From: an uncultured Candidatus Saccharibacteria bacterium
GTDB lineage: Bacteria; Patescibacteriota; Minisyncoccia; JACQLN01
Length of the DNA: 64,000 bases
Direction: 5' to 3'
Assembly (NCBI GenBank): GCA_964365305.1
Contig: CAYIPG010000001.1
Span: forward strand, 2,214 to 66,213
The number at the start of each line of letters is the position of its first letter. Position 1 is the first letter of the stretch. The notes below the pieces were generated by a model, which was not told where the DNA came from, ran no database searches, and saw only the letters and a list, made by a program, of their open reading frames with translations. The position numbers and the translations under genes were made by a program. Shown here piece by piece: positions 8,186 through 58,282 of this stretch.

Positions 8186-8222
8186 TTATTTATAGCCGCA
8201 CCCTAGCACAAAAGAAACCAAG

Positions 8223-28690: not shown

Positions 28691-29096
28691 TACCGTTAAC
28701 CACTTCTTCGTTATTTTGATTTATGATGACAGTTTCAATTTCTAATAAATAAACCGAATTAATCTTATTTTTTATCTTACCCCTAACAGTGACAGTTTCA
28801 CCAATAAAAACCGGCTTTTTAAAATTAATATTTTGCGATAAATACAAATTATGATTTTTAAAAAACTTGCCTACTAAGGTTGAAAAAAATGCCGCTAAAA
28901 GCATCCCATGCACGACAGGTTCTAAAAAATCCTTACTTTTAGCAAATTTTTTATCGCGATGAAGTAAATTTTTATCTCCCGATAGAGAAATAAAATCCAT
29001 TACCTTGTTTTTACTAATAGTCGTTTTGAAAAACGCGACATCCCCGACTTTTATTTTTTCCCAAATATCTTTCTGGGGTATTTTTTTAACATACAT
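28668..29096 (-). CDS. MaoC-like hotdog-fold dehydratase/hydratase.
   Basis: 142 aa. SGDKNLLHRDKKFAKSKDFLEPVVHGML resembles the MaoC/(R)-hydratase hotdog active-site region (D/H...H-G). Confidence 0.6.
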   Translation of the reverse strand: MYVKKIPQKDIWEKIKVGDVAFFKTTISKNKVMDFISLSGDKNLLHRDKKFAKSKDFLEPVVHGMLLAAFFSTLVGKFFKNHNLYLSQNINFKKPVFIGETVTVRGKIKNKINSVYLLEIETVIINQNNEEVVNGIAKVKYI

Positions 29097-29325
29097 ATTT
29101 TACATTATATTTATCTAAAACTTTTTTAATATCTCCCACATTTTTAACCGCCATAAGATCATCCATATCAAATCTGACACCACTAGCTTTTTCCAGCTCA
29201 ACCATCATCATTATAGCATTAAAAGAATCCCATGTTGGCGTGTTGGTTGGAGAAATTTCATCATTTATTTTGTTGCTGGGGATTTCCAATATTTTTGCCA
29301 GTATATCGTATAATTTTTCTTTCAT
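29086..29325 (-). CDS. Acyl/peptidyl carrier protein (DltC/ACP-like).
   Basis: 79 aa. WDSFNAIMMMVELE contains the phosphopantetheine-attachment Ser in a DS(L/F) context followed by the helix-II acidic patch. Confidence 0.7.
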   Translation of the reverse strand: MKEKLYDILAKILEIPSNKINDEISPTNTPTWDSFNAIMMMVELEKASGVRFDMDDLMAVKNVGDIKKVLDKYNVKYVC

Positions 29326-29327
29326 AT

Positions 29328-31115: not shown

Positions 31116-31122
31116 ACTTAAA

Positions 31123-31461
31123 TTATCTCTTAAACGCTATAGCTATTCCAAAACTACTATCATGACTTATGCTTATTTGTATATCCTGTTTTGGCAAACC
31201 TTTTATTTTCACGCATGGCTGTCCACATACTTTATGCTTAATTTCAATTTGACCATGGTTATTTATTTCTTTTTTACCACATGCTTTAATCACAGCTTCT
31301 TTTGCGGCAAAAATTCCAGACAAATGTTCAGAAAATCTTACATTTGAAAAGCAATATTCCCATTCTTTCTTTGTATAAAATTTATCCCAAAATGGATAAT
31401 CTTTTTTCTTTATATTTTTAAACCTACTAATAGAGACAATATCTATTCCAATTCCAATCAT
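31123..31461 (-). CDS. acpS: Holo-ACP synthase (4'-phosphopantetheinyl transferase, AcpS type).
   Basis: 112 aa. MIGIGIDIVSISRF and AAKEAVIKA motifs of AcpS. Confidence 0.75.
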   Translation of the reverse strand: MIGIGIDIVSISRFKNIKKKDYPFWDKFYTKKEWEYCFSNVRFSEHLSGIFAAKEAVIKACGKKEINNHGQIEIKHKVCGQPCVKIKGLPKQDIQISISHDSSFGIAIAFKR

Positions 31462-31569
31462 AATTATTCCGCCTTAAAATAAACTACTTAACAATACCAT
31501 ACCATTATCAATCGGCTCTGTCAAAAAGCCAAGGTTTGGTTGCCATTCGTAGAAAAATATCTTGCTAAA

Positions 31570-32649
31570 CTAAAAAATTTTAATCTTTTTCCTAATATTT
31601 TTAATTATTGAACCCATGACTAAATAAAATCCAAATATGACTCCCATAAATATATAATTCCATCCAGCTCCATGCCATAAACCTATAAGCATAAAAGTAA
31701 TAAAGGTACTTGCATATATCCAGCTTTTTGTTTTGTTTTTCCGACTAAATACCAGGGGATAATAAAGATAATCTCTTAACCAAGTTGATAGTGAAATATG
31801 CCAGCGGCGCCAAAATTCTTCTATATTTCTTGAAAAGTAAGGATAGGAAAAATTTCTCATTAACTTAAAACCGAACAGTTTGGCCGTGCCAATCGCAATA
31901 TCAGAATATCCAGAAAAATCAGCATAAAGCTGGAAAGCAAAAAAGAAAGTGGCAATTAACAACTGATTGCCAGAAACATTTGATAAATTACTATATGTAT
32001 TATTTACAGCAATCGCTAACATGTCCGCTATAAATATTTTCTTAAAAAAACCCCATAGCATTTGCCGACAACCGTCAATAGCTTCTTCCATTTTAAATAC
32101 TCTTTCTCGCGCGAACTGCGTTAAAAAACTTTGCGCTCTATCTATTGGTCCAGCGATAAGTTGGGGAAAAAATGAAACAAATGCTAAAAACTCTGTAAAA
32201 TTACCGGCCGCAGGAATCTTGCGCCGATAAACATCAATGGCGTAACTTAATTCTTTAAAAGTATAAAAACTGATACCGACCGGTAAAATAATGTTAAGCG
32301 TAGTAACCGAAGTTAAAGCCATACCAGCAGACAAAAATAATCCCTGCAACGAACTAATAAAAAAGTTAAAGTATTTAAAAAAACCAAGGATGCCAAGGCT
32401 TGAAATTATAGTTATTGTTAAATAAATTTTGCGCCTTTGTGTATCGTCTGTGTTATGAATTTTCTTTCCCAAAAGAAAACTTATCGTGCTTGATATAAAA
32501 ATTAAAAATAGAAAACGCCAATCCCACCAACCATAAAAAATATAACTAACTATAAGAATAAATAAATTCTGCCTTGCTCTGTTCAATTTCCAGTAAATCA
32601 GGAAAACAAACGCTAAAAAAATTATAAATTCCAAAGAGTTAAAAAGCAT
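31570..32649 (-). CDS. MBOAT-family membrane-bound O-acyltransferase (DltB/AlgI-like).
   Basis: FWRRWHISLSTWLRDYLYYPL contains the invariant MBOAT His motif; multi-TM, 359 aa. Confidence 0.8.
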   Translation of the reverse strand: MLFNSLEFIIFLAFVFLIYWKLNRARQNLFILIVSYIFYGWWDWRFLFLIFISSTISFLLGKKIHNTDDTQRRKIYLTITIISSLGILGFFKYFNFFISSLQGLFLSAGMALTSVTTLNIILPVGISFYTFKELSYAIDVYRRKIPAAGNFTEFLAFVSFFPQLIAGPIDRAQSFLTQFARERVFKMEEAIDGCRQMLWGFFKKIFIADMLAIAVNNTYSNLSNVSGNQLLIATFFFAFQLYADFSGYSDIAIGTAKLFGFKLMRNFSYPYFSRNIEEFWRRWHISLSTWLRDYLYYPLVFSRKNKTKSWIYASTFITFMLIGLWHGAGWNYIFMGVIFGFYLVMGSIIKNIRKKIKIF

Positions 32650-44400: not shown

Positions 44401-45939
44401 GTGATCAATGATTTTCGAGTGCTGATGCTCTATCCCAACTATCAACACGAGATGATGGTACCGCCGGCCTTGGCGTTATTTTCCTCTCTGTTGAAGTGGG
44501 AGGGCTTTAAGGTGGATCTGTTTGACACCACCAATTACAAGATTGACACCGGTGGGGTGGATTCGGAGAAAAGTAAAATGGCCAACTTAACGGTGCGGCC
44601 GTTTAAGTCGACAACCTTGATCAAAAAGGATGATGTCTACACTGATTTTCGCCAAAAGATCAACTCCTTCAGCCCCGATCTACTTTTGGTAACCGCTACC
44701 GAAAACATGTTTTTGGTGGCCATGAAGTTGCTCAACTCGGTTGAGGACACTGGCGTGCCTGTTGTTCTAGGCGGGGTTTTTGCTACTTTCGCCCCGGACT
44801 TAGCCATGCGCTGGCGGGAAGTGGACATGTTGTGCGTGGGCGAGGGAGAGCAGGTCATTGTGGAATTATGCCGCCGCATGAACCGGGGTGAGGATTCTTC
44901 CAGCATTCCCGGACTCTGGGTTAGAGGAAAAGATGGCCTGATTAAAAAAAATCCCCTGGGTCCTCGAGTGAATATGGATGAAAACCCGTTGCCCGATTTT
45001 ACTCTTTTTGAGGATTCTAGATTCTACCGTCCTATGGCCGGTAAGATTTTGAGAATCTTTCCCGCAGAAACTCATCGGGGCTGTCCCTTTACTTGCGCTT
45101 TTTGCAATTCGCCCGATCAGGACAGATTATACGGTCAAGCCACCGGGCAAAAATTCTTTCGCAAGAAAAGGTTTGATAAGATTCACGAGGAACTTTTGTT
45201 TTGCCGCGATGTCTGGCGGGCCCAGTATATCTTTTTCTGGGCGGATACTTTTTTCGCCTGGAGCGAAGAAGAGTTCGATCAGTTCTGCGAAATGTACGCC
45301 GACATCAAACTGCCTTTCTGGTGTCAAACCCGACCCGAAACAGTAGTGGAGCGCCGCATCAAAAAACTAAAAGATGTTGGCATTCACAGAATGGGTTTTG
45401 GCATTGAGCATGGCAACTTTCAATTCAGAAAGGATGTGGTTGATCGCCGCTATACTAATGAACTGGTGATAGCAAGAATGAGAATTCTGGTGGAGCAGGG
45501 TGTTGAATTTAGCGTCAATAACATCATCGGCTTCCCCGACGAAACGCGGGAATTGTCTTTTGATACTATTGAACTAAATCGGCATATTCCGAGCGACACC
45601 ATGAGCTGTTCAATCTTTGTTCCTTTTCATGGGACAAGATTGAGGGAATTGTGTGTCGAAAAGGGCTACATCCATCCTGATGTTATCTGCCCCACCAACT
45701 CCGACGATACGGTTTTAATTATGCCGCCGCCTTTTATGAGCAAAGAACAAATGAAGGGTTTGCGGCGGGTGTTCGCCATGTATGTTAAATTCCCCAAAGA
45801 ACGCTGGCCAGAAATTCGGCAGGCCGAAGAGCTGACTCCTGAGGGGGATGAGGTTTGGGAGAAGTTAAGAAAGGAGTTTGTTAAAACCTTCTTTGCTCCG
45901 CCCGAAACCGACATCGAAAAGATCAATAATGCTGTTTAA
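44401..45939 (+). CDS. B12 (cobalamin)-binding radical SAM protein, putative class B radical-SAM methyltransferase.
   Basis: GTG start. N-terminal B12-binding-like domain (RVLMLYPNYQ...), then CPFTCAFC (CxxxCxxC) radical-SAM cluster motif; 512 aa. Confidence 0.8.
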   Translation: MINDFRVLMLYPNYQHEMMVPPALALFSSLLKWEGFKVDLFDTTNYKIDTGGVDSEKSKMANLTVRPFKSTTLIKKDDVYTDFRQKINSFSPDLLLVTATENMFLVAMKLLNSVEDTGVPVVLGGVFATFAPDLAMRWREVDMLCVGEGEQVIVELCRRMNRGEDSSSIPGLWVRGKDGLIKKNPLGPRVNMDENPLPDFTLFEDSRFYRPMAGKILRIFPAETHRGCPFTCAFCNSPDQDRLYGQATGQKFFRKKRFDKIHEELLFCRDVWRAQYIFFWADTFFAWSEEEFDQFCEMYADIKLPFWCQTRPETVVERRIKKLKDVGIHRMGFGIEHGNFQFRKDVVDRRYTNELVIARMRILVEQGVEFSVNNIIGFPDETRELSFDTIELNRHIPSDTMSCSIFVPFHGTRLRELCVEKGYIHPDVICPTNSDDTVLIMPPPFMSKEQMKGLRRVFAMYVKFPKERWPEIRQAEELTPEGDEVWEKLRKEFVKTFFAPPETDIEKINNAV

Positions 45940-46789: not shown

Positions 46790-47842
46790 TTAATATAAAT
46801 CCTCAAGTTTTATTTGTTCATCCTCTTCTATCATTTTTCTGATTTTTTTGCCAACCACCCTATCAATCATGGCGGGAGACAAACCGCCCTTGCCCGGCCG
46901 CTTAAAATCTATCATGTCTTTTTTCAAAACTGTGCCGACAGAGAGATCGCGGTTTGCCACGATACTCTGACCAGCCCAATTCCTGCCTTTCTCTAAGGTC
47001 TTTATTCTTTTTTTTTCAGTGTGTTGCTTTAAGGCAGTCTCGATATCCCTTATTTGTTTGACCATCAGTTTAAACTCTTGAGGCAACAACGCGCCTGGAT
47101 TATCCAAAGATCGGGGATCTGTTTTATCAAAAGTCAAATGCTTTTCTACTATACAAGCTCCCCTGGCCACGGCGGCTAGCGGTATATGCCAACCAACGCT
47201 GTGATCCGAAATACCGACCGGAACATTATACTTATCCCTAAAATATTCCATTCTTTTTAGGTTGGCGTGCTCATACGGGGTGGGATAAATAGAAACACAA
47301 TGTAGTATGATAATATCCTTAACACCATTTTTTCGTAAAGTATTAATGGCCTTATCAACTTCTTCGTTGGTCTGCACGCCAAAAGATATAATCACCGGCT
47401 TTTTTCTTTTGGCGATATTCTTTAAAAACTCATAGTTATGCGCCTCGCCCGAACCAACTTTAAAGTAAGGTTGCTTGATGATGTTGTCCAGAAAATCCAA
47501 GCTTTCGTTGTCATGCGCGGTTGCAAAAACTGGAATACCGATATTCTGGGCGTGGTTAAAAATTTTTTCCATCTGAACATCCGAAAATTCTTTATACTTC
47601 ATTCGCTCAAACCAATTATAACCAAGCTCTTTCTCTAACCTGTTGCTAACCTTTTTGCTCACCAATTTTTCGGTTTTGGTCGCTTGAAATTTAACTATAT
47701 CCGCTCCGGCTTCAAAAGCGGCTTCAATTTGTTTTTTAGCTAAATCAATCTGACCATAATTAGTGACTCCACCCTCGCAAATTATAAAACATGGCTTACC
47801 TTCTCCAACAATCATCTTGCCTAATTTTATTTTATTTTCCAT
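46790..47842 (-). CDS. Third NeuB-family nonulosonic acid synthase, with SAF domain.
   Basis: VKFQA, LHCVSIYPTP, GISDHS and EKHLT motifs, with C-terminal GTVLKKDMIDFKRPG. Confidence 0.8.
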   Translation of the reverse strand: MENKIKLGKMIVGEGKPCFIICEGGVTNYGQIDLAKKQIEAAFEAGADIVKFQATKTEKLVSKKVSNRLEKELGYNWFERMKYKEFSDVQMEKIFNHAQNIGIPVFATAHDNESLDFLDNIIKQPYFKVGSGEAHNYEFLKNIAKRKKPVIISFGVQTNEEVDKAINTLRKNGVKDIIILHCVSIYPTPYEHANLKRMEYFRDKYNVPVGISDHSVGWHIPLAAVARGACIVEKHLTFDKTDPRSLDNPGALLPQEFKLMVKQIRDIETALKQHTEKKRIKTLEKGRNWAGQSIVANRDLSVGTVLKKDMIDFKRPGKGGLSPAMIDRVVGKKIRKMIEEDEQIKLEDLY

Positions 47843-48810
47843 TTTTTTATTTCTTTTAACACTAATTCGCTTATATATACTTGCGTTCTCTCATTAGCTT
47901 CCTTGGTTGAACCGCCAAGATGAGGAACTATTATCAAATTACTGTTTTTCTTGGCGTACTCAACCAAGGGATTACTTCTTATATGGCCGCCATCCGGCAT
48001 TTCATTGCTTAGAGTGTCCAGAGCCGCGCCGGCTATACCCCCATCATTTAACGCATTAAACAGAGCCGCTTCGTCCGTAATTTCTCCCCGGGCAGTATTT
48101 ATAAAAATAGCGCTCGGCTTCATCATTTTAAAATGTTTTTCTTTAATCATCCCGAAAGTTGAATCATTGTAAACCGAGTGCAAGGAAACAATATCTGATT
48201 TTCTCAAAACATCCGCCAAACCCGCCTTACGAACACCATATTCTTTCATCTCCTTGCGACTAATAAAAGGGTCGTGGGCTAAAACCTTCATACCAAAGGC
48301 CATGCTGTATTTAGACACCATTTTACCCAAACGGCCAAAACCGATAAGACCGATAGTTTTGTTATAAAGTTCAACCCCGGCATATTTTTTTCTATCCCAT
48401 TCGCCTTTTTTAATTGAGTCAAAAGCTGCCGGTATATTCCTTAACAGAGCCAACACCAAAGCAATAGTTTCCTCGGCTGTGGAGTAAGTTTTTTTAAGAA
48501 CGGGAGAACCGGCCTTAATATTAATTATATTAATACCTCTCCTGCGACATTCATCCAAATCAATATAACGCAGTTGTGTTGTCCTGGAACCCACCAATTT
48601 CAAGTTGATGGCTTTGTCCAAAACATCCTTACTAAGCTTAACTTCAAGCCCGGTGACTAATACATCAGCTGATGCGAGATTACTAAAAAATGTTTTATTT
48701 GAAACAAAATCAATAACCCTGCCTCCTTTGGCAAGAATGTTTTTAGCTCTTAAATTGAAATCTTTTTCAGCAATTAGTATTGTAAGCATGGCCCATGTAT
48801 AATTTCTCAT
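47827..48810 (-). CDS. D-isomer-specific 2-hydroxyacid dehydrogenase family (second copy).
   Basis: IGLIGFGRLGKMVSKYSMAFGMKV and HLGGST motifs. Confidence 0.75.
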   Translation of the reverse strand: MRNYTWAMLTILIAEKDFNLRAKNILAKGGRVIDFVSNKTFFSNLASADVLVTGLEVKLSKDVLDKAINLKLVGSRTTQLRYIDLDECRRRGINIINIKAGSPVLKKTYSTAEETIALVLALLRNIPAAFDSIKKGEWDRKKYAGVELYNKTIGLIGFGRLGKMVSKYSMAFGMKVLAHDPFISRKEMKEYGVRKAGLADVLRKSDIVSLHSVYNDSTFGMIKEKHFKMMKPSAIFINTARGEITDEAALFNALNDGGIAGAALDTLSNEMPDGGHIRSNPLVEYAKKNSNLIIVPHLGGSTKEANERTQVYISELVLKEIKKWKIK

Positions 48811-48878
48811 ATACTATAACATCTAGCAACCATGTCTTGTTTTTGGATGTTATAGTAATAGATTAACATAAAATAAAA

Positions 48879-49619
48879 ATGCGCTATTTTACAGCTGATG
48901 AAATAAAAAACACAAATAGAAAAGAGGTCACAGAAGTATTAAAAGGGTGCGCCGGAAAAAATGTAAAATATTATTTTGGAATAAAGGTGTTTAAAAAATA
49001 CTCCGATTTTGCATTGATAACGCACGATGCCAAAATATTAGACCTCGGAACAGCCAGCGGAGCTTTTACAAAACAGCTATACAATTTGGGCTATAAAAAT
49101 ATATTCGCGCACGATATAGACAATTACCTCCCTAATGAGGTGAAAGAAATTGTGAAAGAATACAAACTATCGGATCTAAGCACAGAAAAAAACCCTTGGG
49201 ATGATAACTTTTTTGACGCTATAACCGCTTGGTGTGTTTTACCGCATTTAGAAAATCCGTTCCATTGCGCTAGAGAGCTCTGGCGTGTTCTAAAACCCGG
49301 TGGAATATTTATGTTCACAACTCCTCATATTCTTTCAAAACCAAGCATGGCTTTCTTTCTAAAAAAGAAATATTTCGCGGGGTACAGACCAACCAATAAC
49401 CATATAGCGTTGCTTCCTTTAAGTATTTTGGAGAAAACTATTTTTAGAGGTTTTGAGCTTATTGGAATAGAATATCTGGTTACACCAAAAGTAAACCGGG
49501 GCGCTAAGGGTAAATTAAGGAAATTACTGATTGACTTAAGTAAGTATAATAAATGGCTAAAAAAATTTCTTGAAAAAAGATGGGCTTATAATATCTGCTA
49601 TATCATACGCAAAATTTAA
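48879..49619 (+). CDS. Class I SAM-dependent methyltransferase (paralog of 46049-46786).
   Basis: ILDLGTASGAF and ITAWCVLPHLENP. Confidence 0.55.
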   Translation: MRYFTADEIKNTNRKEVTEVLKGCAGKNVKYYFGIKVFKKYSDFALITHDAKILDLGTASGAFTKQLYNLGYKNIFAHDIDNYLPNEVKEIVKEYKLSDLSTEKNPWDDNFFDAITAWCVLPHLENPFHCARELWRVLKPGGIFMFTTPHILSKPSMAFFLKKKYFAGYRPTNNHIALLPLSILEKTIFRGFELIGIEYLVTPKVNRGAKGKLRKLLIDLSKYNKWLKKFLEKRWAYNICYIIRKI

Positions 49620-50973
49620 GCATGATTTTAGCCAATCTTTCGGCCGATTTTCCATCCCTTTTCCAGCAAATATCCTCGGCAACTTTTTTTCTTTCATCCA
49701 TGTCTAAATCAGGATCTGAAAGATAACCCTTTAGATATTGGGATAACTCGTTTTCGTTATAAGCAATTTTAACTCCCTTACTTTTTATTAACGGCTGTAA
49801 GTGTTCCAGTTTAAAGAATTTTCTAATACTTTCCTTCTCACTAACACTTTTTATCTTATCAAAACCTATAAGAATGACGGGTTTATCAAAAAATAACGCG
49901 TCCATAGCTATGGTTGATGGACCAGGCAACACAACATCGCTATTACAAATTAAATTCATAAGATGTTGATCCGCGTTTTTATCAAGCTCGCCCTTGCCAA
50001 AAAGCGTCTTTGGATAATCTAACTTAAAATTAGAAGGGAGTTTCAAACTACTTATATCTACTTGACCTATCACGGGCAATCTGATTAAAACTTGAACTTT
50101 GTTCGGATCCAAACATCTCAATAATTCAAGAACATACTCATTATAACTAACACTGTCTTTGCTAAATTGTTTCTGTAAGAAACTATCGGCAATAGTTATA
50201 AACAGTACGGTTTTTTTGCTTGGATCCAGACCAATTTTATTAAAAAAAACATCTCGAGGTGTTACCGCTATATTCAAGTAGTTATCATAGTGGGGAATAC
50301 CAACTATTTCTATGTTTTTCTCTGCTACTCTATTGTATTTTTCGCATTCCTCTTTCATAATCTCATTCTGTACAATAATCCTATCTGGAATTTCCCTAAT
50401 TATTCCCCGTCCGGTCAAATTATCCCACGATCTGACCATACCTACGACAAAAATACCTCTTTTTTTGGACTCTCTGATTAAGTCCAGATCGCTTTCCCCC
50501 TCGCTCCTATCAGTTATATCGGTTGAGAAAACTAAAACTGGATTATACTGGTCAAAATAAACGCCAAACCGGTTTTTAGGCAGAAAACAATAATCCAAAG
50601 TCCTTAGCGCGCCCTTAGCTAACTTAGAATTACCGAATAAGACCGTTAAAACACGGCTCATAAAATACTGAACCATTCCAGAAAATGTGTTTAGTTTTAA
50701 TCTTAATCTAAGAAAAATTTTAACAGTGTTGGTATTGAGTAAAGCGCGAGACAAAAAACCAAAAAAAATCTTAACCGTGGATAATGGCGGAACTATTACT
50801 CCTTCAATAATTAGATTGGCATGCCCAAAATTTTTCTCTAAGTAATTTTTTTCGCTCACCGGCGCCAATATCACTATCCTGACACTCCCAGAAGAGAGAA
50901 TCTTTAAAAAATCGGTGGCCAAGATATTTCTGACCACGAAATTAGAAAAAACGCTAACAAAAACTGTTTTCAT
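49603..50973 (-). CDS. TagF-like CDP-alditol phosphotransferase family GT-B protein (paralog 4).
   Basis: RSWDNLTGRGIIREIPDRIIVQN and SDVVLPGPSTIAMDALFFDKPVILIGFD motifs. Confidence 0.5.
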   Translation of the reverse strand: MKTVFVSVFSNFVVRNILATDFLKILSSGSVRIVILAPVSEKNYLEKNFGHANLIIEGVIVPPLSTVKIFFGFLSRALLNTNTVKIFLRLRLKLNTFSGMVQYFMSRVLTVLFGNSKLAKGALRTLDYCFLPKNRFGVYFDQYNPVLVFSTDITDRSEGESDLDLIRESKKRGIFVVGMVRSWDNLTGRGIIREIPDRIIVQNEIMKEECEKYNRVAEKNIEIVGIPHYDNYLNIAVTPRDVFFNKIGLDPSKKTVLFITIADSFLQKQFSKDSVSYNEYVLELLRCLDPNKVQVLIRLPVIGQVDISSLKLPSNFKLDYPKTLFGKGELDKNADQHLMNLICNSDVVLPGPSTIAMDALFFDKPVILIGFDKIKSVSEKESIRKFFKLEHLQPLIKSKGVKIAYNENELSQYLKGYLSDPDLDMDERKKVAEDICWKRDGKSAERLAKIMLKFCV

Positions 50974-50980
50974 TGGTTAG

Positions 50981-51691
50981 TTATAGTATTAGGAATGATC
51001 GGGCGATTTCCAAGTCAAAGGGATCGTTTATATCATGAGCGCTTTTCGTGTCTATCTCAAAACCCACCGCTTGGCCTAATTCAATCTTTTTTTCCTTCAA
51101 AAACAAATCTCGTTTAAACCACCATAAATTACCATGAGCGTATCTTTTAGGATCAAGTTGCCTGCTGGGATGAGCATAATGCAATTCTGGATTATCAAAT
51201 CGTAAATAACCGTTAGAATCAATATGACGAACATGGTAAGGATGAAAAACACGGGGCACGGCTATAACAGTTTTTCCCGAATCCGCCTTTTTGGATATAA
51301 TTAAGTCAAGTGTTTTATCTATTTGTTCAGGTTTTATAAAAGGAGTGGTAGGTTCAATCAGTAGAATATATTCAGGTTTATAATTCTGGTTTTGTTCTAA
51401 CCATAAAAGAGCGTGCTCAATAACCGGTATGGTCGGCGTGTTGTCTTGGGCTAATTCCTGGGGGCGCAGGAATGGTATTTCGGCTCCCCACTGCTGGGCC
51501 ACATCAGCAATTTCTTTATCATCGGTGGTAACAATTAATCGTTTAACCGAATTACTGCTCTTTATCGCTTCGAGACAATACGCCATCAGCGGCTTTCCGC
51601 CAAGATCCGCGATGTTTTTACGGGGGATGGATTTGGATCCGCCTCTAGCGGGAACAATCGCTAATGTTTCAATTTTATTATAAACATTCAT
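50981..51691 (-). CDS. Third acylneuraminate cytidylyltransferase-family protein.
   Basis: LAIVPARGGSKSIPRKNI...LIVTTDD. The track ORF extends to 51805. I place the start at the internal ATG (51691-51689, MNVYNKIETLAIV) by comparison with the paralogs and to avoid overlapping the sqdB-like stop. Confidence 0.7.
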   Translation of the reverse strand: MNVYNKIETLAIVPARGGSKSIPRKNIADLGGKPLMAYCLEAIKSSNSVKRLIVTTDDKEIADVAQQWGAEIPFLRPQELAQDNTPTIPVIEHALLWLEQNQNYKPEYILLIEPTTPFIKPEQIDKTLDLIISKKADSGKTVIAVPRVFHPYHVRHIDSNGYLRFDNPELHYAHPSRQLDPKRYAHGNLWWFKRDLFLKEKKIELGQAVGFEIDTKSAHDINDPFDLEIARSFLIL

Positions 51692-51761
51692 AGATAAAAC
51701 TATATATAATTGTAACCCAAAAATAAAGCCGGCGGTTTTTTGCCGATGGCTGTGTGTGATC

Positions 51762-53000
51762 CTATACAAAACGAACTTTTTCCCTACGCCCATCCCACTG
51801 GACATCGGGGATCAATACATCCTTTTTGGCCTCAATGCGATCTCGGCACTTCATTAGATCTAGAAGCATAACCTCCATCTCGGTTTCTATGTCATGGGTG
51901 GGTCGGTATCCCAAATCAAGAAGATGTCTATGGTCGGGGTTGTAATAATGTTCCTCCATTTCTTTGCGCGGATTCTCGAGATTGCGCACTTCCACCGGCA
52001 ATCCCAACCCACCGGCCACTTTCTTGATTTTCAGAGCCAACTCGGTGATATCATAGACCTCCTCGAACTGGTTGAAAACCCGATACTCACCGTTCCTAGA
52101 TGGGTTCTCAAGCGCGAGAGTCAGACACTGCATGGAATCCCGCAGGGGAAGGAAACCTCTTTTCTGATGTCCCTTCCCAAACGGCGTCAGCGGGTGTCCA
52201 ATGACGGCCTGACAGCAGAAACGGTTGATGGCTGTACCGAAGGCCTGATCAAAGTCCAGTCGTGTCAACAACTGTTTGTCATTGCCCATGGCATCGATGC
52301 GAGTACCAAAAACAACGCCCTGCATAATATCCGTGGCCCGCAGGCCCCAGATTTTGCAGGCAAACATAATGTTGTTAGAACTATGAACTTTGCTCCAGTG
52401 GTACCAACTTCCCGCTTGTCGTGGAAAAACCGCCTTGGGATATTTCTTCCCACGAAATTCGGCATCAAAGAAACCCTCTGGGATATCAACCGGTGGCGTG
52501 CCGTACTCACCCATTGTCCCCAACTTGACCAGATGGGCCTGTGGGCAAATATCCCGCATAGCAAAGATCAAATTGAGAGTTCCAACAATGTTGTTGGTCT
52601 GGACGAACGCAGCGTGTTTGGCGCTCATCATAGAATACGGCGCCGATGGGCATTCACCCAAATGCACCACAGCATCGGGTTGGAACTCGCGAAAAACCCG
52701 TTCAACCAGATCGTAATCACGGAGATCCCCTTCCCAAAAACGCAATTCTCTCCCAAAACGCTTTTTGAAAGCTGGTAATCGTTCTTTCATTAAACAGATA
52801 GGTATGGCACTCCAGGAACCCATTTCTTCCACCCACACCCGGCGGGAAAAATTATCCACCCCCGCCACCTTATGACCTCTAGCCGTTAAATGCTGCGCCA
52901 AAGACCAACCTAAATACCCGTCCACTCCAGCAATCAAAATTTTCATTTTATGGTCTCCTTTTTTAGAGATTGATGAAGGTTGCTTGATCGTTTTTTTCAT
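51762..53000 (-). CDS. sqdB: UDP-sulfoquinovose synthase (SQD1/SqdB).
   Basis: Near-colinear match to remembered SQD1 signature blocks: HLVKLGTMGEYGTP, WYHWSKVHSSNNIMFACKIWGLRATD, QGVVFG, RLDFDQAFGTAINRFCCQAVIGHPLT.FGKGHQKRG, RVFNQFEE and EEHYYNPDH. The gene is visibly more GC-rich than its neighbours. Confidence 0.85.
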   Translation of the reverse strand: MKKTIKQPSSISKKGDHKMKILIAGVDGYLGWSLAQHLTARGHKVAGVDNFSRRVWVEEMGSWSAIPICLMKERLPAFKKRFGRELRFWEGDLRDYDLVERVFREFQPDAVVHLGECPSAPYSMMSAKHAAFVQTNNIVGTLNLIFAMRDICPQAHLVKLGTMGEYGTPPVDIPEGFFDAEFRGKKYPKAVFPRQAGSWYHWSKVHSSNNIMFACKIWGLRATDIMQGVVFGTRIDAMGNDKQLLTRLDFDQAFGTAINRFCCQAVIGHPLTPFGKGHQKRGFLPLRDSMQCLTLALENPSRNGEYRVFNQFEEVYDITELALKIKKVAGGLGLPVEVRNLENPRKEMEEHYYNPDHRHLLDLGYRPTHDIETEMEVMLLDLMKCRDRIEAKKDVLIPDVQWDGRREKVRFV

Positions 53001-53049
53001 AAAAAGAGCAAAAATAACCTTAACATTTGTATAAACTTAAGTAAAGACA

Positions 53050-53730
53050 TCAAATTTTGGTGTGCAAACCGCATTCACCGCCAATATGGGCTGTGCCGCT
53101 AAATCGACCTGCTCTTTCAAATTGTCCTTGTCTACCGCCACCCTCTCGGGTTTTACCAGATGTAGTGCATGGCTTACAACCCAAGGAAAGGTAACCTTGA
53201 CCGTAAAGAGGGTGGTGTCTTAAATTATTTTCTTTTATGTATTGCCACACATCCTCTTTAGTCCAAAAAGCAATTGGATTTATCTTGGCAATTTTACCAT
53301 CTTCAACCAGTGGAGTATTTTTTCTGTATTCTGTTTCATCCCTCCGCAATCCAGTAATCCATGCATCATAATTACCCAAAACAGCATTTATTGCTGGTAT
53401 CTTCATTTCACAACATTTATACTGATCATTTTTTATGAAAGAAGCGCCATAATACTCATTTATTTTTTTCTCGTCCTCTTCACTGGGACGAGTCCATTTA
53501 AAATTCATCTTTAAGTCGCTCACTAGAGAAGCGGCGAAAGATAGGGTTTCTTCAAACTCGTATCCCGTATCTATACCCACAAACTGAAAATCCGGATTTA
53601 TCTGCCTTACCAAATCCACTATAACTACCGAGTCCTTACCAAAAGAGCAGGCCGCAAAAATATGTGGATACGCTTTGGCCGCCAATGTTATTAGGCCTTT
53701 GGAAACATCTGTTTTCTCTTTGAGAGTCAT
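53050..53730 (-). CDS. cysH: Assimilatory APS/PAPS reductase (CysH family, Fe-S type).
   Basis: SFGKDSVV (PP-loop, cf. SGGKDS), KCCEMK (CC pair), SLGCKPCT (CxxC) and the C-terminal ECGLH motif. Confidence 0.8.
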   Translation of the reverse strand: MTLKEKTDVSKGLITLAAKAYPHIFAACSFGKDSVVIVDLVRQINPDFQFVGIDTGYEFEETLSFAASLVSDLKMNFKWTRPSEEDEKKINEYYGASFIKNDQYKCCEMKIPAINAVLGNYDAWITGLRRDETEYRKNTPLVEDGKIAKINPIAFWTKEDVWQYIKENNLRHHPLYGQGYLSLGCKPCTTSGKTREGGGRQGQFERAGRFSGTAHIGGECGLHTKI

Positions 53731-53763
53731 ATAGATTTAATTATTTGGTTAATTATAATATTT

Positions 53764-54921
53764 TTAACTCAACCTTTTCTCCAAAAGTTTCCTGTTTATT
53801 TTTACTGACTTTAAAATCTTCACTATCCTTTCCGAAGCCCGACCATCGCCCAAATGCGGCTTGATATTTTTAAGTTTTTGCCTAAAAATCTTATTTGCCA
53901 AAACATATCTTATCTTTTCGATTACATCGGTTTTATTATGATTTGAATCAACCACATTACTGGATCTAGATCGGCCGGTTTGACGATGACCGATATTCAC
54001 CGCCGGCAATTTTAGGTAAGGGGCTTCTACCAAAGCTCCAGAGGAATTACCAATCATAGCTTTAGCCGCGGCCATCAAACCCAAAAAATCCAAATTTTCT
54101 ATATTCTTATAAATTTTGAAATTAGAGTCGTGATCAACTTCATGGATGGCCTTGATAATTCCTTCGTAACCCGGATCGGAACAAGGATAAAGCAGAACTG
54201 ATTTAAAATCTAACGATTTGATCGCGCCAAGAATTAACTTCATATCTTCATAGTTCTCTCGGCTAGTTTTCATTGTTTCAGGATGGTAAATGGTAATAAA
54301 AAAATCTTCACCGGGCCAAGCGTATTTAGCCGCAGCCGCCTTAGGAACAGTAAATATTCTCTTAATAATACGATCTATATAAACCGAACCGACTGTGTGA
54401 ATGCGCCACGACTCTTCGCCCAACGACCTAACAATTTGGGCCGCTCTTTTAGTTTCCGGAAAATGAATGTGAGCTAACTTAGTAATAGCGTGCCGTTGAA
54501 CATCGTCTACATTACCGGACGACTCACCACCTTGGGTGTGAGCAATGGGTATATTCAAAGACAAAGCCGCAAAGGCAATCATCAAATGTTCCCCGCGGTC
54601 GGCGTGCACCAAAACAATATCAGGCCTTAATTTATTAAGAACCGACACGCTCCTAGTCAGACACAAACCCAAATTCTCGGCCCTGATGACCGCCGAATCT
54701 CCACGGCCAGTGCCTATATCAATAACCTCTATTTTTGACTTTGGGAAAAGATTATTTGCCTCGTCGACAGTTTTTCCAAACTGCGGTGAGGCATGCATAT
54801 CAGAAAGAAGAAGCTGTAATTCCAAACCCGGGTCTTTTTCAATTAGTTTTATAAGTTCAGAATAAGCGCCTAGGCCACCCCTCTTGCCCGAAAAAACACA
54901 GATTTTTCTTTTTTTTTTCAT
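53764..54921 (-). CDS. Second UDP-N-acetylglucosamine 2-epimerase, hydrolysing type (NeuC-like).
   Basis: IAHTQGGE...RHAITKLAHIHF...VGSVYIDR, colinear with the 8945-10207 protein. Confidence 0.75.
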   Translation of the reverse strand: MKKKRKICVFSGKRGGLGAYSELIKLIEKDPGLELQLLLSDMHASPQFGKTVDEANNLFPKSKIEVIDIGTGRGDSAVIRAENLGLCLTRSVSVLNKLRPDIVLVHADRGEHLMIAFAALSLNIPIAHTQGGESSGNVDDVQRHAITKLAHIHFPETKRAAQIVRSLGEESWRIHTVGSVYIDRIIKRIFTVPKAAAAKYAWPGEDFFITIYHPETMKTSRENYEDMKLILGAIKSLDFKSVLLYPCSDPGYEGIIKAIHEVDHDSNFKIYKNIENLDFLGLMAAAKAMIGNSSGALVEAPYLKLPAVNIGHRQTGRSRSSNVVDSNHNKTDVIEKIRYVLANKIFRQKLKNIKPHLGDGRASERIVKILKSVKINRKLLEKRLS

Positions 54922-54927
54922 TATTTT

Positions 54928-56328
54928 TTATTTATATAACTTTAATTTAAAAAGATAATCTTTAAAGAGAATTATGATATTTTTATAAAGGCCGACTGCA
55001 AAAAAAACATCATCGCGATTAAATACAAAAATCTCTTTAACTCTTATTTTTAAATAAGGACGCGCCTTAACTAACCAGTAATAAAACAGGATCGTTGTAA
55101 TAGCATAGGTTATAACATACTCTAACGCCGCGCCCCACACTCCAAGAATAGGCAAAAGCAAAGCCAATAAGCCAATAGATAAAAAAGTATTATCAAATGA
55201 GCGAATAAATAATATGCGCTGTTCTTGTAAAGCTATTATCATCATACGCAAAACCTTGTAAAAACCATACAAGAAAAAAACAACTGACATGAGCTTAATG
55301 AGGGATACCGCCTCGCTATATTTTGGGAAAAAGTAATGTATAACCATAGGCACAAAAATAAAAAAACAGATACCCAGTAAAAGACCCAAAAAAGAAGAAT
55401 ATTTCAACATTCTAGCAAAAATATGCCTTAATCTTTTATGATCATCTAACTCTCTAGGCAATAAAAGACCCATGGTTCCTATCGGAAATAAAGTAATTAT
55501 AAAGGCCAGCGCAGATCTGGCTAAACTGTATATAGCCACGGCCTCTGTGTTCAGAAAAAACTTTACTAGCCATAACCTGGTGCTACTGGATAACTTAGAT
55601 AAAATATTTCTAAGCAACACCCATAAACCATGTGCTTTTACAAGCGGCCATAAAATGCCATTACTTGCAAGCGCTGATTGAGCGAAAAGTTTAAAGTAGG
55701 CCTTTATAAAATAAAAACTGGAAAATGCCAAAGCGCAGAATTGAGAAACAATGTGAATAATTAAAACAGTTTTTATGTTTAAACCCTGCTTGGTAATAAA
55801 CAGAGTGACTATAATTAAAGTTTTTACAAGCTCACCCGCTAATGGAACCGATAAATTTAAAAAAGAAATTTTAGATCTAAAAAAAGAATCCTGCACCGAC
55901 TGCATGCTCTCAATAAGTATCATTATGCTGGCGATTTTAATATAAATCCCCAGACCCTGGCTATAATAGTTAGAAATAATATCTGCTCCCAAAAAAACCA
56001 AAATCGCAAGTATTACCCCCAAAACCGTTTTAGCTCCAGCATATTCCAAAAACAACCGTTTAGCTGACCTTATATTTAACTGTCCAATAAACCTGCTTAA
56101 GCTAACTTCCACAATAGAATCTATTCCACCCGAAGTCAGACTGCTGGCTATGGTTATAAAAGAAATCACTAGCTGATATAAACCAAAATCATAAACGGTC
56201 AGCAAAGTCAAAATCATGGCGGAATTTATCAAAACAACAAATTTTACGGATAAATTCCAAAAACCGGAAATGACTTCCCCTTCTATCAAATTTCTTGCCA
56301 AAGAATGTCCTTTTATTTCCATATTCAA
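54928..56328 (-). CDS. Wzx-like polysaccharide flippase (MOP superfamily).
   Basis: 466 aa, about 12-14 TM helices, no soluble domain; sits in the operon between glycosyltransferases and NeuC. Confidence 0.5.
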   Translation of the reverse strand: MNMEIKGHSLARNLIEGEVISGFWNLSVKFVVLINSAMILTLLTVYDFGLYQLVISFITIASSLTSGGIDSIVEVSLSRFIGQLNIRSAKRLFLEYAGAKTVLGVILAILVFLGADIISNYYSQGLGIYIKIASIMILIESMQSVQDSFFRSKISFLNLSVPLAGELVKTLIIVTLFITKQGLNIKTVLIIHIVSQFCALAFSSFYFIKAYFKLFAQSALASNGILWPLVKAHGLWVLLRNILSKLSSSTRLWLVKFFLNTEAVAIYSLARSALAFIITLFPIGTMGLLLPRELDDHKRLRHIFARMLKYSSFLGLLLGICFFIFVPMVIHYFFPKYSEAVSLIKLMSVVFFLYGFYKVLRMMIIALQEQRILFIRSFDNTFLSIGLLALLLPILGVWGAALEYVITYAITTILFYYWLVKARPYLKIRVKEIFVFNRDDVFFAVGLYKNIIILFKDYLFKLKLYK

Positions 56329-57378
56329 CTAAAAAGCGAGAGCGATACTTAATTTCTCCATCAAATAGTTTAAGCTATGGTGGTTAACAACAATATCTCT
56401 TAACTCACTTGTTAATCTAATCTCCTCGTTGCTTTCCAATTTTAGCAAATTAATTATCTTTGACCCTAAATTATCAGAATCCCCTTCATTAAAAATAAAA
56501 AGGTTGACCAATTTTGAGGGTAAGATATCTTTATAAGATAAATTAGAAACTAATATCATGGTTTCGCAGGACATTGCTTCCAAAGTAGTTTTATCTAAAC
56601 TTCCGGTTGGGGTTAAATTTATGAAAATACGGCTCTCATTGTAAGCTAAAACCGCCTCTGAATTTGGAATAGATGATCTAAAAATTATTTTACCGTCTTT
56701 TATTAATTTTAGAGACATGGTCTTCAACTTATTCTTGTAAAATTCATCAGCTCTAGAAGAGGGAGAACCAATAATATAAATTTGAAAATCAATTTTCTGC
56801 CTATCTAGTAACTCAGCCGCCGAGATTAGCACTTCTATTTTTTTAATGGGCGAGATACGGCCTAGAAATAAAATTTGATTATGATTTTTTGCGACAGGGA
56901 CCTTCTTAAAAAGATCAACATCAATTCCAGCCGGCATTAAATTTGTTTTGCTAAACTTGGCCGCAAAAGAATATTTTGAGGTGCAAAAAACTCTACCTGA
57001 AAAAAAAATCCCTACTCTATCTATAACATTACCCATAGGATGGTTATACCACAATGAAGTTTTCTTATCATAAAGTTTCCAAAATAAACCGCCCAGCACA
57101 ATATAGATAGGATTCATATGCACAAACACTACATCATAATCATGCCTTAATTTCCAAATATACTTATAAAAATTAAATATATATTTGAGCCGAGACGGAC
57201 CTGATTCTTTGCCTAACGAAAAAACCCCGACATTGTTTGGCAATTCGGTTTTACCTTGATAGAGACAGACCACCGAGATCTTAGTGAATTTTTGAGCTAA
57301 TTTGCTTATCCAACTATGATAAACGCCCAAAATATCATCATCCAGGTCTACTTTTTGAGTTATAAACAAAAGTTTCAT
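56329..57378 (-). CDS. GT4-family glycosyltransferase (divergent).
   Basis: C-terminal LEAMSCETMILVSN (EX7E-like region); 349 aa GT-B size. Confidence 0.5.
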   Translation of the reverse strand: MKLLFITQKVDLDDDILGVYHSWISKLAQKFTKISVVCLYQGKTELPNNVGVFSLGKESGPSRLKYIFNFYKYIWKLRHDYDVVFVHMNPIYIVLGGLFWKLYDKKTSLWYNHPMGNVIDRVGIFFSGRVFCTSKYSFAAKFSKTNLMPAGIDVDLFKKVPVAKNHNQILFLGRISPIKKIEVLISAAELLDRQKIDFQIYIIGSPSSRADEFYKNKLKTMSLKLIKDGKIIFRSSIPNSEAVLAYNESRIFINLTPTGSLDKTTLEAMSCETMILVSNLSYKDILPSKLVNLFIFNEGDSDNLGSKIINLLKLESNEEIRLTSELRDIVVNHHSLNYLMEKLSIALAF

Positions 57379-57412: not shown

Positions 57413-58282
57413 TTAGATAAGCTCCTTGTAGTGTTCCTTGTACCAATCCACCGTTCGTTTCATGCCTACTTCTATAGGAGTAAATTCAAACTTCCCTAAC
57501 CAGCGTTCTAGAGTTGAGATGTCACCCTGAATAACCGCTTTCGATGTTTCACCTGGGCGCATAGGTAAAAACTCTATTTTTGCTCCCAACATATCCGCTA
57601 TCAACTTGGCCACTTTAATCAAGGGTTCACCCCTGCCACTGCCGGAATCAATTACTTCTGTAGCGACTTTGTCCAACTCCAAAGCCCGAACTAGAATCTC
57701 TGCCGTATCGCCAGCGTAAACCAAATCAACTAATTGGCTACCATCACCATAAACCTGTAGCGGTTGGCCCTGTAGGGCTCTGATGATAAAACTGGGAGCA
57801 AACTTTCTAACCGGTTTGAATTTCTGGCCTTCGCCATAAACATTAAACCCTCTAACAACATTTATATGAGTGCTAAATTCTTTATTGTACAAAAAAGCAA
57901 AGTCCTTGGCTGTTCTTTTGGTTAAAGCATAGGGGTTGTACCAAACATCCGGCAGTGTTATATAAACGCATTTCTTGTTATATTTTTTAACTGCCTCAAA
58001 AACATTAAGCGTGCCCAATATATTGACCTCGTTGGTCTCAATAATATGCTGAAGGGTTTCCGCTGTGCCAAGAATACCGGCTAAGTGGATAACCCCATCG
58101 CATTCAAAAACGGCCTGGTCCACAGCATTCTTATCGCGAATATCGGCTGTAAAACTTTTAACTCCTGGCACCGGATCAATCATACGACGATCAAAACTTA
58201 AAACCTGATGCCCATGAGACAAAAGCGTTTTTATCACATGACCGCCAATAAAACCCTGCCCGCCAGTTACTAAAACTTTCAT
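57413..58282 (-). CDS. NAD-dependent nucleotide-sugar epimerase/dehydratase/reductase.
   Basis: VLVTGGQGFIGGHV Rossmann motif; 289 aa. Confidence 0.75.
   Translation of the reverse strand: MKVLVTGGQGFIGGHVIKTLLSHGHQVLSFDRRMIDPVPGVKSFTADIRDKNAVDQAVFECDGVIHLAGILGTAETLQHIIETNEVNILGTLNVFEAVKKYNKKCVYITLPDVWYNPYALTKRTAKDFAFLYNKEFSTHINVVRGFNVYGEGQKFKPVRKFAPSFIIRALQGQPLQVYGDGSQLVDLVYAGDTAEILVRALELDKVATEVIDSGSGRGEPLIKVAKLIADMLGAKIEFLPMRPGETSKAVIQGDISTLERWLGKFEFTPIEVGMKRTVDWYKEHYKELI

Follow-up and report, generated by a model that had tools for sequence, protein, structure and literature searches.

Our analysis of a 64-kb stretch of DNA from a bacterium of the Candidate Phyla Radiation (CPR; contig CAYIPG010000001.1, the whole stretch being referred to as 'the window') makes it quite likely that two neighbouring genes, cysH and sqdB (Table 1), constitute a two-gene sulfonation module within a surface-glycan locus, and that this module is ancestral and widespread among CPR bacteria, with sqdB having been replaced in the lineage represented by the window and the contig L007. 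From family membership and gene context we infer that CysH, an iron-sulfur (Fe-S), thioredoxin-dependent reductase, would reduce adenosine 5'-phosphosulfate (APS), rather than 3'-phosphoadenosine 5'-phosphosulfate (PAPS), to free sulfite. SqdB, a nicotinamide adenine dinucleotide (NAD)-dependent short-chain dehydrogenase/reductase (SDR) of the SQD1 type, would oxidise C4 of a hexose activated with uridine diphosphate (UDP), eliminate water to give a 5,6-ene, add the sulfite at C6 and re-reduce C4, yielding a UDP-6-deoxy-6-sulfo-hexose which, by default, may be read as UDP-sulfoquinovose. The products of the nearby neuC, neuB and neuA genes, along with a transferase and a flippase, would then use the sulfosugar for the decoration of, presumably, the cell surface. 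The proposal builds on the families and motifs of the two proteins, on a conserved gene neighbourhood, on the presence of cysD, cysN and a CysN-CysH fusion in relatives, and, as regards the replacement, on phylogeny and nucleotide composition.

The pairing of cysH with sqdB recurs beyond the window. The order NeuC-CysH-SqdB is found on three unrelated CPR contigs (L007, L008 and L009). Alignment of CysH against the GTDB species representatives (one genome per species, the window's species not being among them and the best CysH match there being 76%), followed by a search of every locus with a reference protein panel, yielded 29 loci whose CysH shares 50% identity or more with the window's. SqdB is encoded within 5 kb of cysH in 16 of them, and in 12 of these it lies directly downstream of cysH. 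Two of the 29 loci end at cysH and are uninformative; the 11 loci without SqdB nearby are mostly from Acidobacteriota, the others being CPR loci in which cysH stands beside an APS kinase gene, and in the Acidobacteriota locus L022 cysH follows right after an assimilatory sulfite reductase gene. Outside CPR, sqdB and cysH are adjacent in a Chloroflexi-type locus (L092) and in a metagenome-assembled genome (MAG) of Bathyarchaeia (L075), both devoid of Neu genes. The spacer between cysH and sqdB measures 103 bp in the window, 109 bp in L007, 31 bp in L008 and 30 bp in L009, i.e., it is about three times as long in the window as in L008 and L009, loci with a native sqdB for which the coordinates of the called genes were read.

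In three relatives, genes for sulfate activation join the pair. Loci L036 and L044 (Falkowbacteria) exhibit the order cysH-cysD-cysN-sqdB-neuB, and L037 exhibits the order sqdB-neuB-cysD-cysN::cysH, the last two genes being fused into one that encodes 655 residues. CysD scores 442 and 427 bits on TIGR02039 (cutoff 396.6), and CysN 494 and 482 bits on TIGR02034 (cutoff 336.1). Since neither an APS kinase nor a sulfite reductase was found in these three cysDN-bearing loci, CysH would appear to use APS directly and to provide its sulfite to SqdB. As read from their genes, L036, L037 and L044 evidently each hold a full and dedicated route from sulfate via APS and sulfite to a sulfosugar in a single operon. 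In the fusion gene of L037 (8684-10651), residues 1-420 correspond to CysN, the GTPase subunit of ATP sulfurylase, and residues 447-655 to CysH; neuA is also near.

A dedicated supply of sulfite for a sulfonated sugar had been suggested in an earlier, sequence-only reading of this DNA, with housekeeping sulfate assimilation named as the circumstance that could explain cysH instead. The occurrence of cysH together with sqdB in 16 other CPR species, adjacent in 12, and the cysDN genes in three do not fit a housekeeping explanation of the position of cysH, and the conserved linkage, taken together with the cysDN genes and the CysN-CysH fusion of relatives, argues for the dedicated supply.

Judged by family models and motifs, CysH is a genuine Fe-S protein of the APS-reductase type. 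The 226-residue protein matches Pfam PAPS_reduct with E = 7.6e-44 and passes the NCBIfam equivalog model for phosphoadenylyl-sulfate reductase, NF002537 (179.5 bits, cutoff 154), while it stays below the cutoffs of two narrower subfamily models (TIGR02055, 148.2 versus 235.3; TIGR00434, 159.1 versus 165.1). As proposed in the sequence-only reading, it is encoded on the same strand as sqdB and contains a PP-loop (SFGKDS), the cysteines of a CC...CxxC motif (C106-C107 and C185xxC188) and an ECGLH motif (E219-C220-G221-L222-H223). The four cysteines and ECGLH are invariant in the CPR alignment, and the cysteines align with those of the best solved relative, the Fe-S APS reductase of Mycobacterium tuberculosis (7lhr). 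Four Fe-S cysteines of this kind separate APS-type reductases from PAPS reductases of the Escherichia coli type. The possibility, raised in the same reading, that the protein belongs to a DndC-like clade was pursued and rejected, as was a CysD-like identity: besides passing NF002537, possessing the Fe-S cysteines and ECGLH, and having 7lhr as its best structural match, CysH scores only 55-62 bits on CysD models. An identical protein (100%) is annotated in a Patescibacteria MAG, and numerous CPR proteins share 60-77% identity with it. The same gene occurs, in the gene order of the window, on contigs assembled from Hainich groundwater (Hain_H41/H43; ENA ERZ1292632 and others), and the window is accordingly assigned to a CPR bacterium.

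Several homologues of CysH deserve mention in their own right. In L032, L033 and L035, a CysH homologue stands beside an APS-kinase motif, and L035 also contains cysD and cysN and is devoid of sqdB; L033 and L035 are labelled Magasanikiibacteriota and L032 was automatically labelled 'uncultured Gammaproteobacteria'. These three homologues aligned only to residue 209, so that ECGLH falls outside the aligned part. CysH proteins from Acidobacteriota (L018, L019, L022, L029, L034) are 66-70% identical to CPR proteins and nest within the CPR clade, which suggests that this type of cysH has been exchanged across phyla.

SqdB is likewise an SQD1-like protein over its full length, as had been stated from sequence alone: it matches Arabidopsis SQD1 (PDB 1qrr) with E = 2e-118, residues 2-385 aligning with residues 3-383 of the chain. 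The maximal ORF (open reading frame; 51762-53000, minus strand) would encode 412 residues. The real start is, however, almost certainly the ATG at 52946, which gives 394 residues, because AAGGAG lies 8 nt upstream, all homologues start with MKILIAG or MRILILG, and public gene calls comprise 394 residues. The segments GTMGEYGTP and YHWSKVH are present and are kept, with only minor variation, across 47 aligned sequences, with T145, M146, G147, E148, Y149, Y182, H183 and K186 being conserved; a review of dehydratases gives [ST]MG...Yx3K as the signature of SQD1 and Agl3 (PMC8987622). A terminator-like hairpin (51746-51729; 5-bp stem and T-run) just past the sqdB stop codon is a weak lead only. 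The end of sqdB is overlapped by a 38-codon N-terminal extension of neuA (51692-51805), which is probably not translated; the neuA orthologue of L007 starts at the equivalent of M39.

Nearly all of the window encodes glycan biosynthesis. Pfam annotation, which covered 54 of its 55 ORFs of at least 100 residues (the one left out being the overlapped ORF 30952-31347), shows glycosyltransferases, flippases, a Wzy-like polymerase, methyltransferases and an acylation cassette of the FkbH/acyl carrier protein (ACP) type. There are three gene sets for nonulosonic acids (NulOs), namely A (8223-12281), B (17944-21340) and C (46790-54921). The embedding of the cysH-sqdB pair specifically in a NulO module is a point that goes beyond the sequence-only reading. 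All 18 loci analysed lie among genes for NeuC, NeuA, NeuB and Glyphos_transf-like proteins, and the conserved core obtained by clustering all ORFs of these 18 loci consists of CysH (18), SqdB (18), NeuC (16), the cytidine monophosphate (CMP)-NulO synthetase NeuA (16), NeuB (15) and a Glyphos_transf/BFO_1060-like transferase (14). Gene order is shuffled among lineages, yet the core genes remain together. NeuC of the window, which passes the cutoff of TIGR03568 (Table 1), belongs to a family that stands beside cysH-sqdB in 16 of the 18 loci. NeuB and NeuA of set C ('type C') remain below the curated cutoffs (NeuB, 300.5 versus 399.65 on TIGR03569 and 238.7 versus 340.25 on the PseI model; NeuA, 153.3 versus 205.7 on the PseF model TIGR03584, its L007 orthologue having 236 residues) and are thus family members of an uncharacterised subtype.

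The association is with this subtype of NulO synthase. In loci with two NulO sets, SqdB always has orthologues of set C of the window as its closest NeuB and NeuC. The linkage was also examined starting from NeuB: metagenome contigs were scanned with an alignment of type-C NeuB proteins, type C being defined by at least 42% identity and SqdB being counted within 10 kb. SqdB is encoded beside type-C NeuB in all 15 loci flanked by 5 kb or more on either side and in 22 of the 24 loci of at least 9 kb, the two exceptions being loci in which NeuB is located at the contig edge; beside other types of NeuB it was found in none of 27 loci overall and in none of the 10 that span at least 9 kb.

The composition of sqdB sets it apart from its surroundings. 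Its GC content is 0.488 and that at third codon positions (GC3) 0.533, versus means over the 55 ORFs of 0.382 (s.d. 0.050) and 0.369 (s.d. 0.070), respectively; this corresponds to z-scores of about +2.1 and +2.3 and to ranks one and two, so that the gene is indeed richer in GC than its neighbours, as the sequence-only reading had noted by eye. The jump at the 5' end of the gene is sharp, from 0.31 in the spacer to cysH to 0.47-0.56 within sqdB. The tRNA and Rfam scans found neither tRNA genes nor Rfam families in the window, so no integration-site or RNA feature accounts for the GC island, and in a promoter/terminator scan of 50900-55100 the counts (13 versus 9.8 and 6 versus 4.2) do not exceed shuffled expectation. 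Three long spurious antisense ORFs had also been ascribed to the gene. Two of them, 51894-52778 (plus strand, 294 residues) and 52390-52716 (plus strand, 108 residues), are indeed antisense, and the former is the longest shadow ORF of the window, every other being at most 137 residues long; the third, 52265-52564, lies on sqdB's own strand in another frame. A second outlier beside sqdB is the radical S-adenosylmethionine (SAM)/B12 gene at 44401-45939 (plus strand; GC 0.474), whose GC3 of 0.556 is the highest in the window. This B12-binding radical-SAM gene, conserved in the sister locus L007, may be another gene of foreign origin within the glycan locus.

Phylogeny places the origin of sqdB elsewhere than that of its neighbours. 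SqdB of the window is 45-49% identical to its positional, CPR-type orthologues in L008 and L009; in the same comparison CysH shows 68-76%, NeuC 47-57% and NeuB 44-62% identity. The nearest relatives of SqdB are found on the syntenic sister contig L007 (90%) and then among proteins of Chloroflexi/Anaerolineae MAGs (80-82%), whereas all 16 other CPR species possess the CPR-type SqdB. In a neighbour-joining tree, the CPR-type clade is recovered in 92 of 100 replicates, and the window and L007 fall within the Chloroflexi-type clade in 100 of 100. Donor-type sqdB genes exhibit a GC content of 0.60-0.63 and a GC3 of 0.77-0.88, compared with 0.49 and 0.53 for the sqdB of the window and 0.38 and 0.37 for the background, and the window's gene is partly ameliorated to the composition of its host; CPR-type sqdB genes have the GC content of their own loci (L008, L009, L100). 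Locus L100, which is from the same aquifer, has the order GT4-flippase-NeuC-CysH-SqdB-NeuA-2HADH-NeuB in common with the window (GT4, family-4 glycosyltransferase; 2HADH, 2-hydroxyacid dehydrogenase) and a NeuB that is 73% identical. Because it is thus syntenic and yet keeps a CPR-type SqdB, the swap appears to be confined to the lineage of the window and L007.

Taken together, tree and composition indicate that sqdB is a Chloroflexi-type xenologue which was put into the slot of the resident CPR-type gene, with no new trait being gained. Horizontal acquisition, which the sequence-only reading had proposed, is therefore supported, with the correction that the foreign copy brought no new capability. 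In the CysH tree, the CysH of the window falls among CPR proteins and is remote from the CysH that accompanies a Chloroflexi-type sqdB, and cysH and the Neu genes have evidently stayed native. A joint transfer of cysH and sqdB was considered and rejected, CysH being native to CPR and the CysH partner of the Chloroflexi-type sqdB being distant. In L100 (4540-5169), the CysH that fills the cysH slot shares just 35% identity with the window's, which represents a second, independent replacement in place. Given such in-place swaps of sqdB in the window and of cysH in L100, selection would seem to act on the function rather than on a particular gene.

Several observations weigh against a cysH-sqdB sulfonation module, or against parts of it. 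SqdB reaches 547.5 bits on the NCBIfam model for UDP-sulfoquinovose synthase, NF041015, which is narrowly under the cutoff of 575; relatives score 573 and 535 (Chloroflexi) and 481 and 457 (CPR-type). Its residue 101 (codon near 52650) is Pro and not Arg, and the active site thus differs from those characterised so far: SQD1, Agl3 and the SqdB of Sinorhizobium meliloti all have Arg here, and Agl3 loses its activity through the mutation R101A (PMC4388408). Pro101 is shared by the whole clade to which the window's protein belongs, by the CPR-type clade and by the Bathyarchaeia homologue, the surrounding residues being GECPSAPYS in the window, AEQPSAPYS in the CPR type, and EQR[SA]AP in SQD1, S. 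meliloti SqdB and a homologue on a Pseudonocardia plasmid. The exchange may affect the handling of the cofactor or the range of substrates; the position may correspond to Lys84 of E. coli GalE and Gly102 of WbpP. Pfam, motif regular expressions and tblastn with CysD/CysN found no sat, cysD, cysN, cysC, thioredoxin or sulfate transporter gene in the 64 kb; the genes for an APS source may lie in another part of the genome, in the manner of the cysDN-bearing relatives, or APS may be supplied by a host. Among 15 well-flanked loci with sqdB and type-C neuB, cysH lies within 10 kb in seven, i.e., the reductase is frequent without being obligatory. A conserved glycosyltransferase of evident specificity for sulfosugars was not found among the loci, and the trees are single-gene neighbour-joining trees with midpoint rooting. 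Lastly, in L010 and L031 (Microgenomates; 7293-9848) cysH is located between a CMP-NulO synthetase gene and that of a 369-residue BFO_1060-like transferase in a locus resembling those for pseudaminic and legionaminic acid (Pse/Leg), with no sqdB within 8 kb, an arrangement that the supply of sulfite to SqdB leaves unexplained.

How well do other explanations account for the data? That CysH belongs to housekeeping assimilatory sulfate reduction and stands beside sqdB by coincidence is very improbable: members of the same CysH clade do occur next to the assimilatory sulfite reductase of L022 and, in the CPR-like MAG locus L030, the same type of cysH is found among ribosomal and housekeeping genes, but the adjacency is kept over 16 further species with shuffled gene orders, and according to Pfam neither a sulfite reductase of the NIR_SIR type nor a cysteine synthase is encoded in the window or the CPR loci examined. 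Hardly any credence can be given, too, to the view that SqdB is a sulfite-independent UDP-sugar 5,6-dehydratase feeding a deoxy-NulO pathway, with CysH as a mere neighbour, e.g., a remnant of sulfur assimilation. Such an activity has precedents in Pen and in Agl3, the latter of which makes UDP-glucose-5,6-ene without sulfite (PMC4388408; PMC8987622), and it would agree with the replacement of Arg101 and with the lack of a nearby cysH in about half of the sqdB/neuB(C) loci. It would leave unaccounted for, however, that in 12 species representatives cysH immediately precedes sqdB, that cysD, cysN and the CysN-CysH fusion occur between or beside these genes in three loci, that the cysH slot of L100 was refilled by another CysH, that the adjacency recurs in Chloroflexi-type and archaeal loci, and that no sulfite reductase accompanies cysH in CPR loci. 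As for the GC island, the chance that it merely reflects amino-acid composition or strong protein conservation, and is no trace of transfer, is close to negligible. GC at first codon positions is also high in sqdB (0.554), and the conserved N-terminal part of neuA reaches 0.46-0.49; but the excess is greatest at synonymous third positions, equally conserved CPR-type sqdB genes match the GC of their own loci, and the phylogeny independently puts sqdB into a foreign clade.

The fate of the sulfosugar invites two readings. In the conservative one, which fits the data, a NulO-bearing glycan would receive the sulfosugar directly from UDP-sulfoquinovose or from the corresponding 4-epimer, sulfofucose: a GalE-like SDR often follows sqdB, GT4 genes are nearby (56329-57378 and others), and the donor clade mostly occurs in loci with glycosyltransferases of families 2 and 4 (GT2/GT4) and without Neu genes. 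The synthases SqdX and SQD2 of the sulfolipid sulfoquinovosyl diacylglycerol (SQDG) are GT4 enzymes. It is also possible, if somewhat doubtful, that SqdB opens the type-C NulO pathway as its first committed enzyme, in the place of the 4,6-dehydratase PseB/LegB of the pseudaminic and legionaminic acid pathways, with CysH supplying sulfite, and that the product is a C-sulfonated (9-deoxy-9-sulfo) NulO. SqdB, possibly being a Pro101 subtype that accepts UDP-N-acetylglucosamine (UDP-GlcNAc), would then convert UDP-GlcNAc and sulfite into UDP-6-deoxy-6-sulfo-GlcNAc; type-C NeuC would take off UDP and epimerise C2; type-C NeuB would condense the sugar with phosphoenolpyruvate to 9-deoxy-9-sulfo-nonulosonic acid; and type-C NeuA would make the CMP-sugar for transfer by the Glyphos_transf/BFO_1060-like enzyme, the product being, e.g., 9-deoxy-9-sulfo-N-acetylneuraminic acid (Neu5Ac) or a relative. 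This scheme would explain why the 18-locus core combines CysH and SqdB with NeuC, NeuA, NeuB and one transferase-like family, with no second conserved glycosyltransferase, and holds together despite shuffled order; why in genomes with several NulO sets only type-C NeuC and NeuB adjoin sqdB; why type-C NeuB goes with SqdB (15/15 and 22/24) and other types do not (0/27); and why type-C NeuB and NeuA fall below the cutoffs of known NulO types. Furthermore, Pro101 of both clades implies an altered active-site wall, and SQD1 and Agl3 share 4-keto and 5,6-ene intermediates with dehydratases of NulO pathways, a 5,6-dehydratase, Pen, operating in a pseudaminic acid pathway (PMC8987622). On the other hand, the characterised members of the SQD1 family use UDP-glucose and none is known to accept UDP-GlcNAc; the residence of the Chloroflexi-type donor clade mostly in GT2/GT4 glycan loci without Neu genes suggests direct transfer of the sulfosugar there, and for a xenologue to take over from the CPR type, the two would have to catalyse the same reaction; sqdB and cysH are also paired without Neu genes in L075 and L092; the association of NeuB with SqdB could in part stem from common descent of the entire locus within one CPR subgroup; and a C-sulfonated NulO is not reported in the searched literature.

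Table 1. Genes and spacer of the cysH-sqdB neighbourhood in the window.
Feature	Coordinates	Strand	Description
neuB (type C)	46790..47842	-	nonulosonate synthase; Pfam NeuB + SAF
D-2-hydroxyacid dehydrogenase (PGDH-like)	47827..48810	-	in 4/18 loci, also L100
SAM-dependent methyltransferase	48879..49619	+	Pfam; family in 11/18 loci
Glyphos_transf / BFO_1060-like transferase	49603..50973	-	candidate transferase for CMP-activated sugar; family in 14/18 loci
neuA (type C)	50981..51691	-	CMP-nonulosonate synthetase; Pfam CTP_transf_3; ORF to 51805, likely start M39 at 51691
sqdB	51762..52946	-	SDR of the UDP-sulfoquinovose-synthase family, 394 aa; evident Chloroflexi-type xenologue
cysH-sqdB spacer	52947..53049	-	103 bp, GC about 0.31, holds sqdB ribosome-binding site
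cysH	53050..53730	-	Fe-S-type APS/PAPS reductase, predicted thioredoxin-dependent, 226 aa; evidently native to the CPR clade
neuC (type C)	53764..54921	-	hydrolysing UDP-GlcNAc 2-epimerase family; TIGR03568 320.6 > 235.9
Polysaccharide flippase (Polysacc_synt_3)	54928..56328	-	Pfam; syntenic in L007, L100
GT4 glycosyltransferase	56329..57378	-	Pfam; syntenic in L007, L100; candidate transferase for UDP-sulfosugar
Extended SDR, GalE/4,6-dehydratase-like	57413..58282	-	289 aa; similar SDR directly 3' of sqdB in many loci

Further features of the window and of related loci touch upon this neighbourhood. A GalE/4,6-dehydratase-like SDR gene often comes directly after sqdB or sqdB-cysH (L014, L016, L017, L021, L091, L092, L094), and a counterpart is present in the window at 57413-58282; this SDR could epimerise the UDP-sulfosugar, e.g., to UDP-sulfofucose. 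In a Uhrbacteria-like locus, a protein of the TauE/SafE family, which is sulfite exporter-like, is encoded two genes past sqdB (L008, 11005-11751, being the same as L012, 12999-13742), and a second one directly after cysH in a Pacearchaeota contig (L057, 10773-11444); such proteins may be sulfite or sulfonate transporters tied to the module. Regarding the other NulO sets of the window, set A comprises genes for NeuA, NeuC, NeuB and a second NeuB-like protein with a GC content of 0.42-0.46, and set B genes for a 2-hydroxyacid dehydrogenase, NeuA and a UDP-sugar dehydrogenase. The organism appears to make two different NulOs or more. The acyl-modification cassette (27926-32649) encodes an SDR, a MaoC dehydratase, an FkbH-like protein, a 4'-phosphopantetheinyl transferase and an O-acyltransferase of the MBOAT family, so the glycan may be decorated in an unusual way with acyl or glyceryl groups. 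Finally, two ORFs at 3525-5755 with unusually high GC at second codon positions (0.52 and 0.58), one of them with peptidoglycan-binding domains, probably encode low-complexity secreted proteins.

CPR bacteria (Patescibacteria) are ultra-small and mostly episymbiotic, with a very reduced metabolism; their surface is the interface with the host and is chemically almost unknown. Leaving aside the deviations noted above, each of the enzymes discussed here is an ordinary member of a well-known family. What appears to be new is (i) that an APS reductase, joined in relatives by ATP sulfurylase, is physically coupled to an SQD1-type synthase, (ii) the conservation of this coupling in many CPR lineages, (iii) its strict association with one subtype of NulO synthase, and (iv) the xenologous replacements in place. 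Our proposal implies that many CPR bacteria keep a self-contained route from cysH, preceded in some species by cysDN, to sqdB solely for placing a permanently charged C-sulfonate on a surface sugar, and thus predicts a specific structure that mass spectrometry could look for. The proposal would account for the persistence of a sulfate-reduction gene in organisms that otherwise do not appear to assimilate sulfate, and it would add groundwater bacteria that are not photosynthetic to the makers of sulfosugars and thereby, in the sulfur cycle, to the sources of compounds of the sulfoquinovose type. Should the sulfosugar indeed be a sulfonated NulO, the product would belong to a new class of sialic-acid-like sugars, the SQD1 reaction would be seen in a new role, and ultra-small symbionts would be seen to devote space in tiny genomes to sulfate activation just for surface decoration. 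In the literature searched we found no paper that joins sqdB with cysH or sulfoquinovose with CPR/Patescibacteria, and nothing relevant on NulOs in connection with sulfoquinovose, sulfonic acids or Patescibacteria, nor on sulfoquinovosamine.

Comparison with known systems places the module between several of them. With SQD1 of Arabidopsis (1qrr), SqdB of S. meliloti and Agl3 of Sulfolobus acidocaldarius, the SqdB of the window shares fold, length, the GxxGxxG site for NAD, TMGEY and YHxSK, and by inference the same chemistry of NAD-dependent oxidation, 5,6-dehydration and addition of sulfite, but it has Pro at the position at which all three have Arg. Gene context differs as well: in S. meliloti a glycosyltransferase gene comes after sqdB, whereas in the window sqdB is not beside an SQDG synthase gene (sqdX, sqdD or SQD2) and is instead located between cysH and Neu genes of a non-photosynthetic CPR bacterium. 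As in the sulfite supply of plastids, and in keeping with the cysDN-cysH genes of bacteria, an APS reductase would feed an SQD1-type enzyme, and relatives of the window encode CysD, CysN and CysH together; in plants and typical bacteria, however, sulfite comes from a general assimilation pathway encoded elsewhere, while here the gene for the reductase, and in relatives that for ATP sulfurylase, is coupled to the synthase gene.

A similar mixture of likeness and difference is found for NulO pathways. PseB/LegB and the Pen/Pal enzymes of Bacillus thuringiensis are likewise extended SDRs acting on C4/C5/C6 of a UDP-sugar, followed by NeuC-like and NeuB-like proteins and a CMP-synthetase in a gene cluster, but the SDR of the window is of the SQD1 family and comes with a putative sulfite generator of its own, and the aminotransferase and acetyltransferase of the Pse/Leg type are not part of the conserved core. 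Sulfosugars are, moreover, known from archaeal surface glycans (PMC8987622; 10.1101/2023.08.01.551581), with the biosynthesis of sulfofucose being not known (10.1101/2023.08.01.551581). The archaeal N-glycans, which contain sulfoquinovose made via Agl3 in Sulfolobus and 6-C-sulfofucose in Thermoplasma, provide a parallel to the presumed destination of the sugar considered here, in that a C-sulfonated hexose is part of a surface glycan rather than of a thylakoid lipid; the system in the window would differ from them in its bacterial host, a member of CPR, and in the distinct architecture of its locus.

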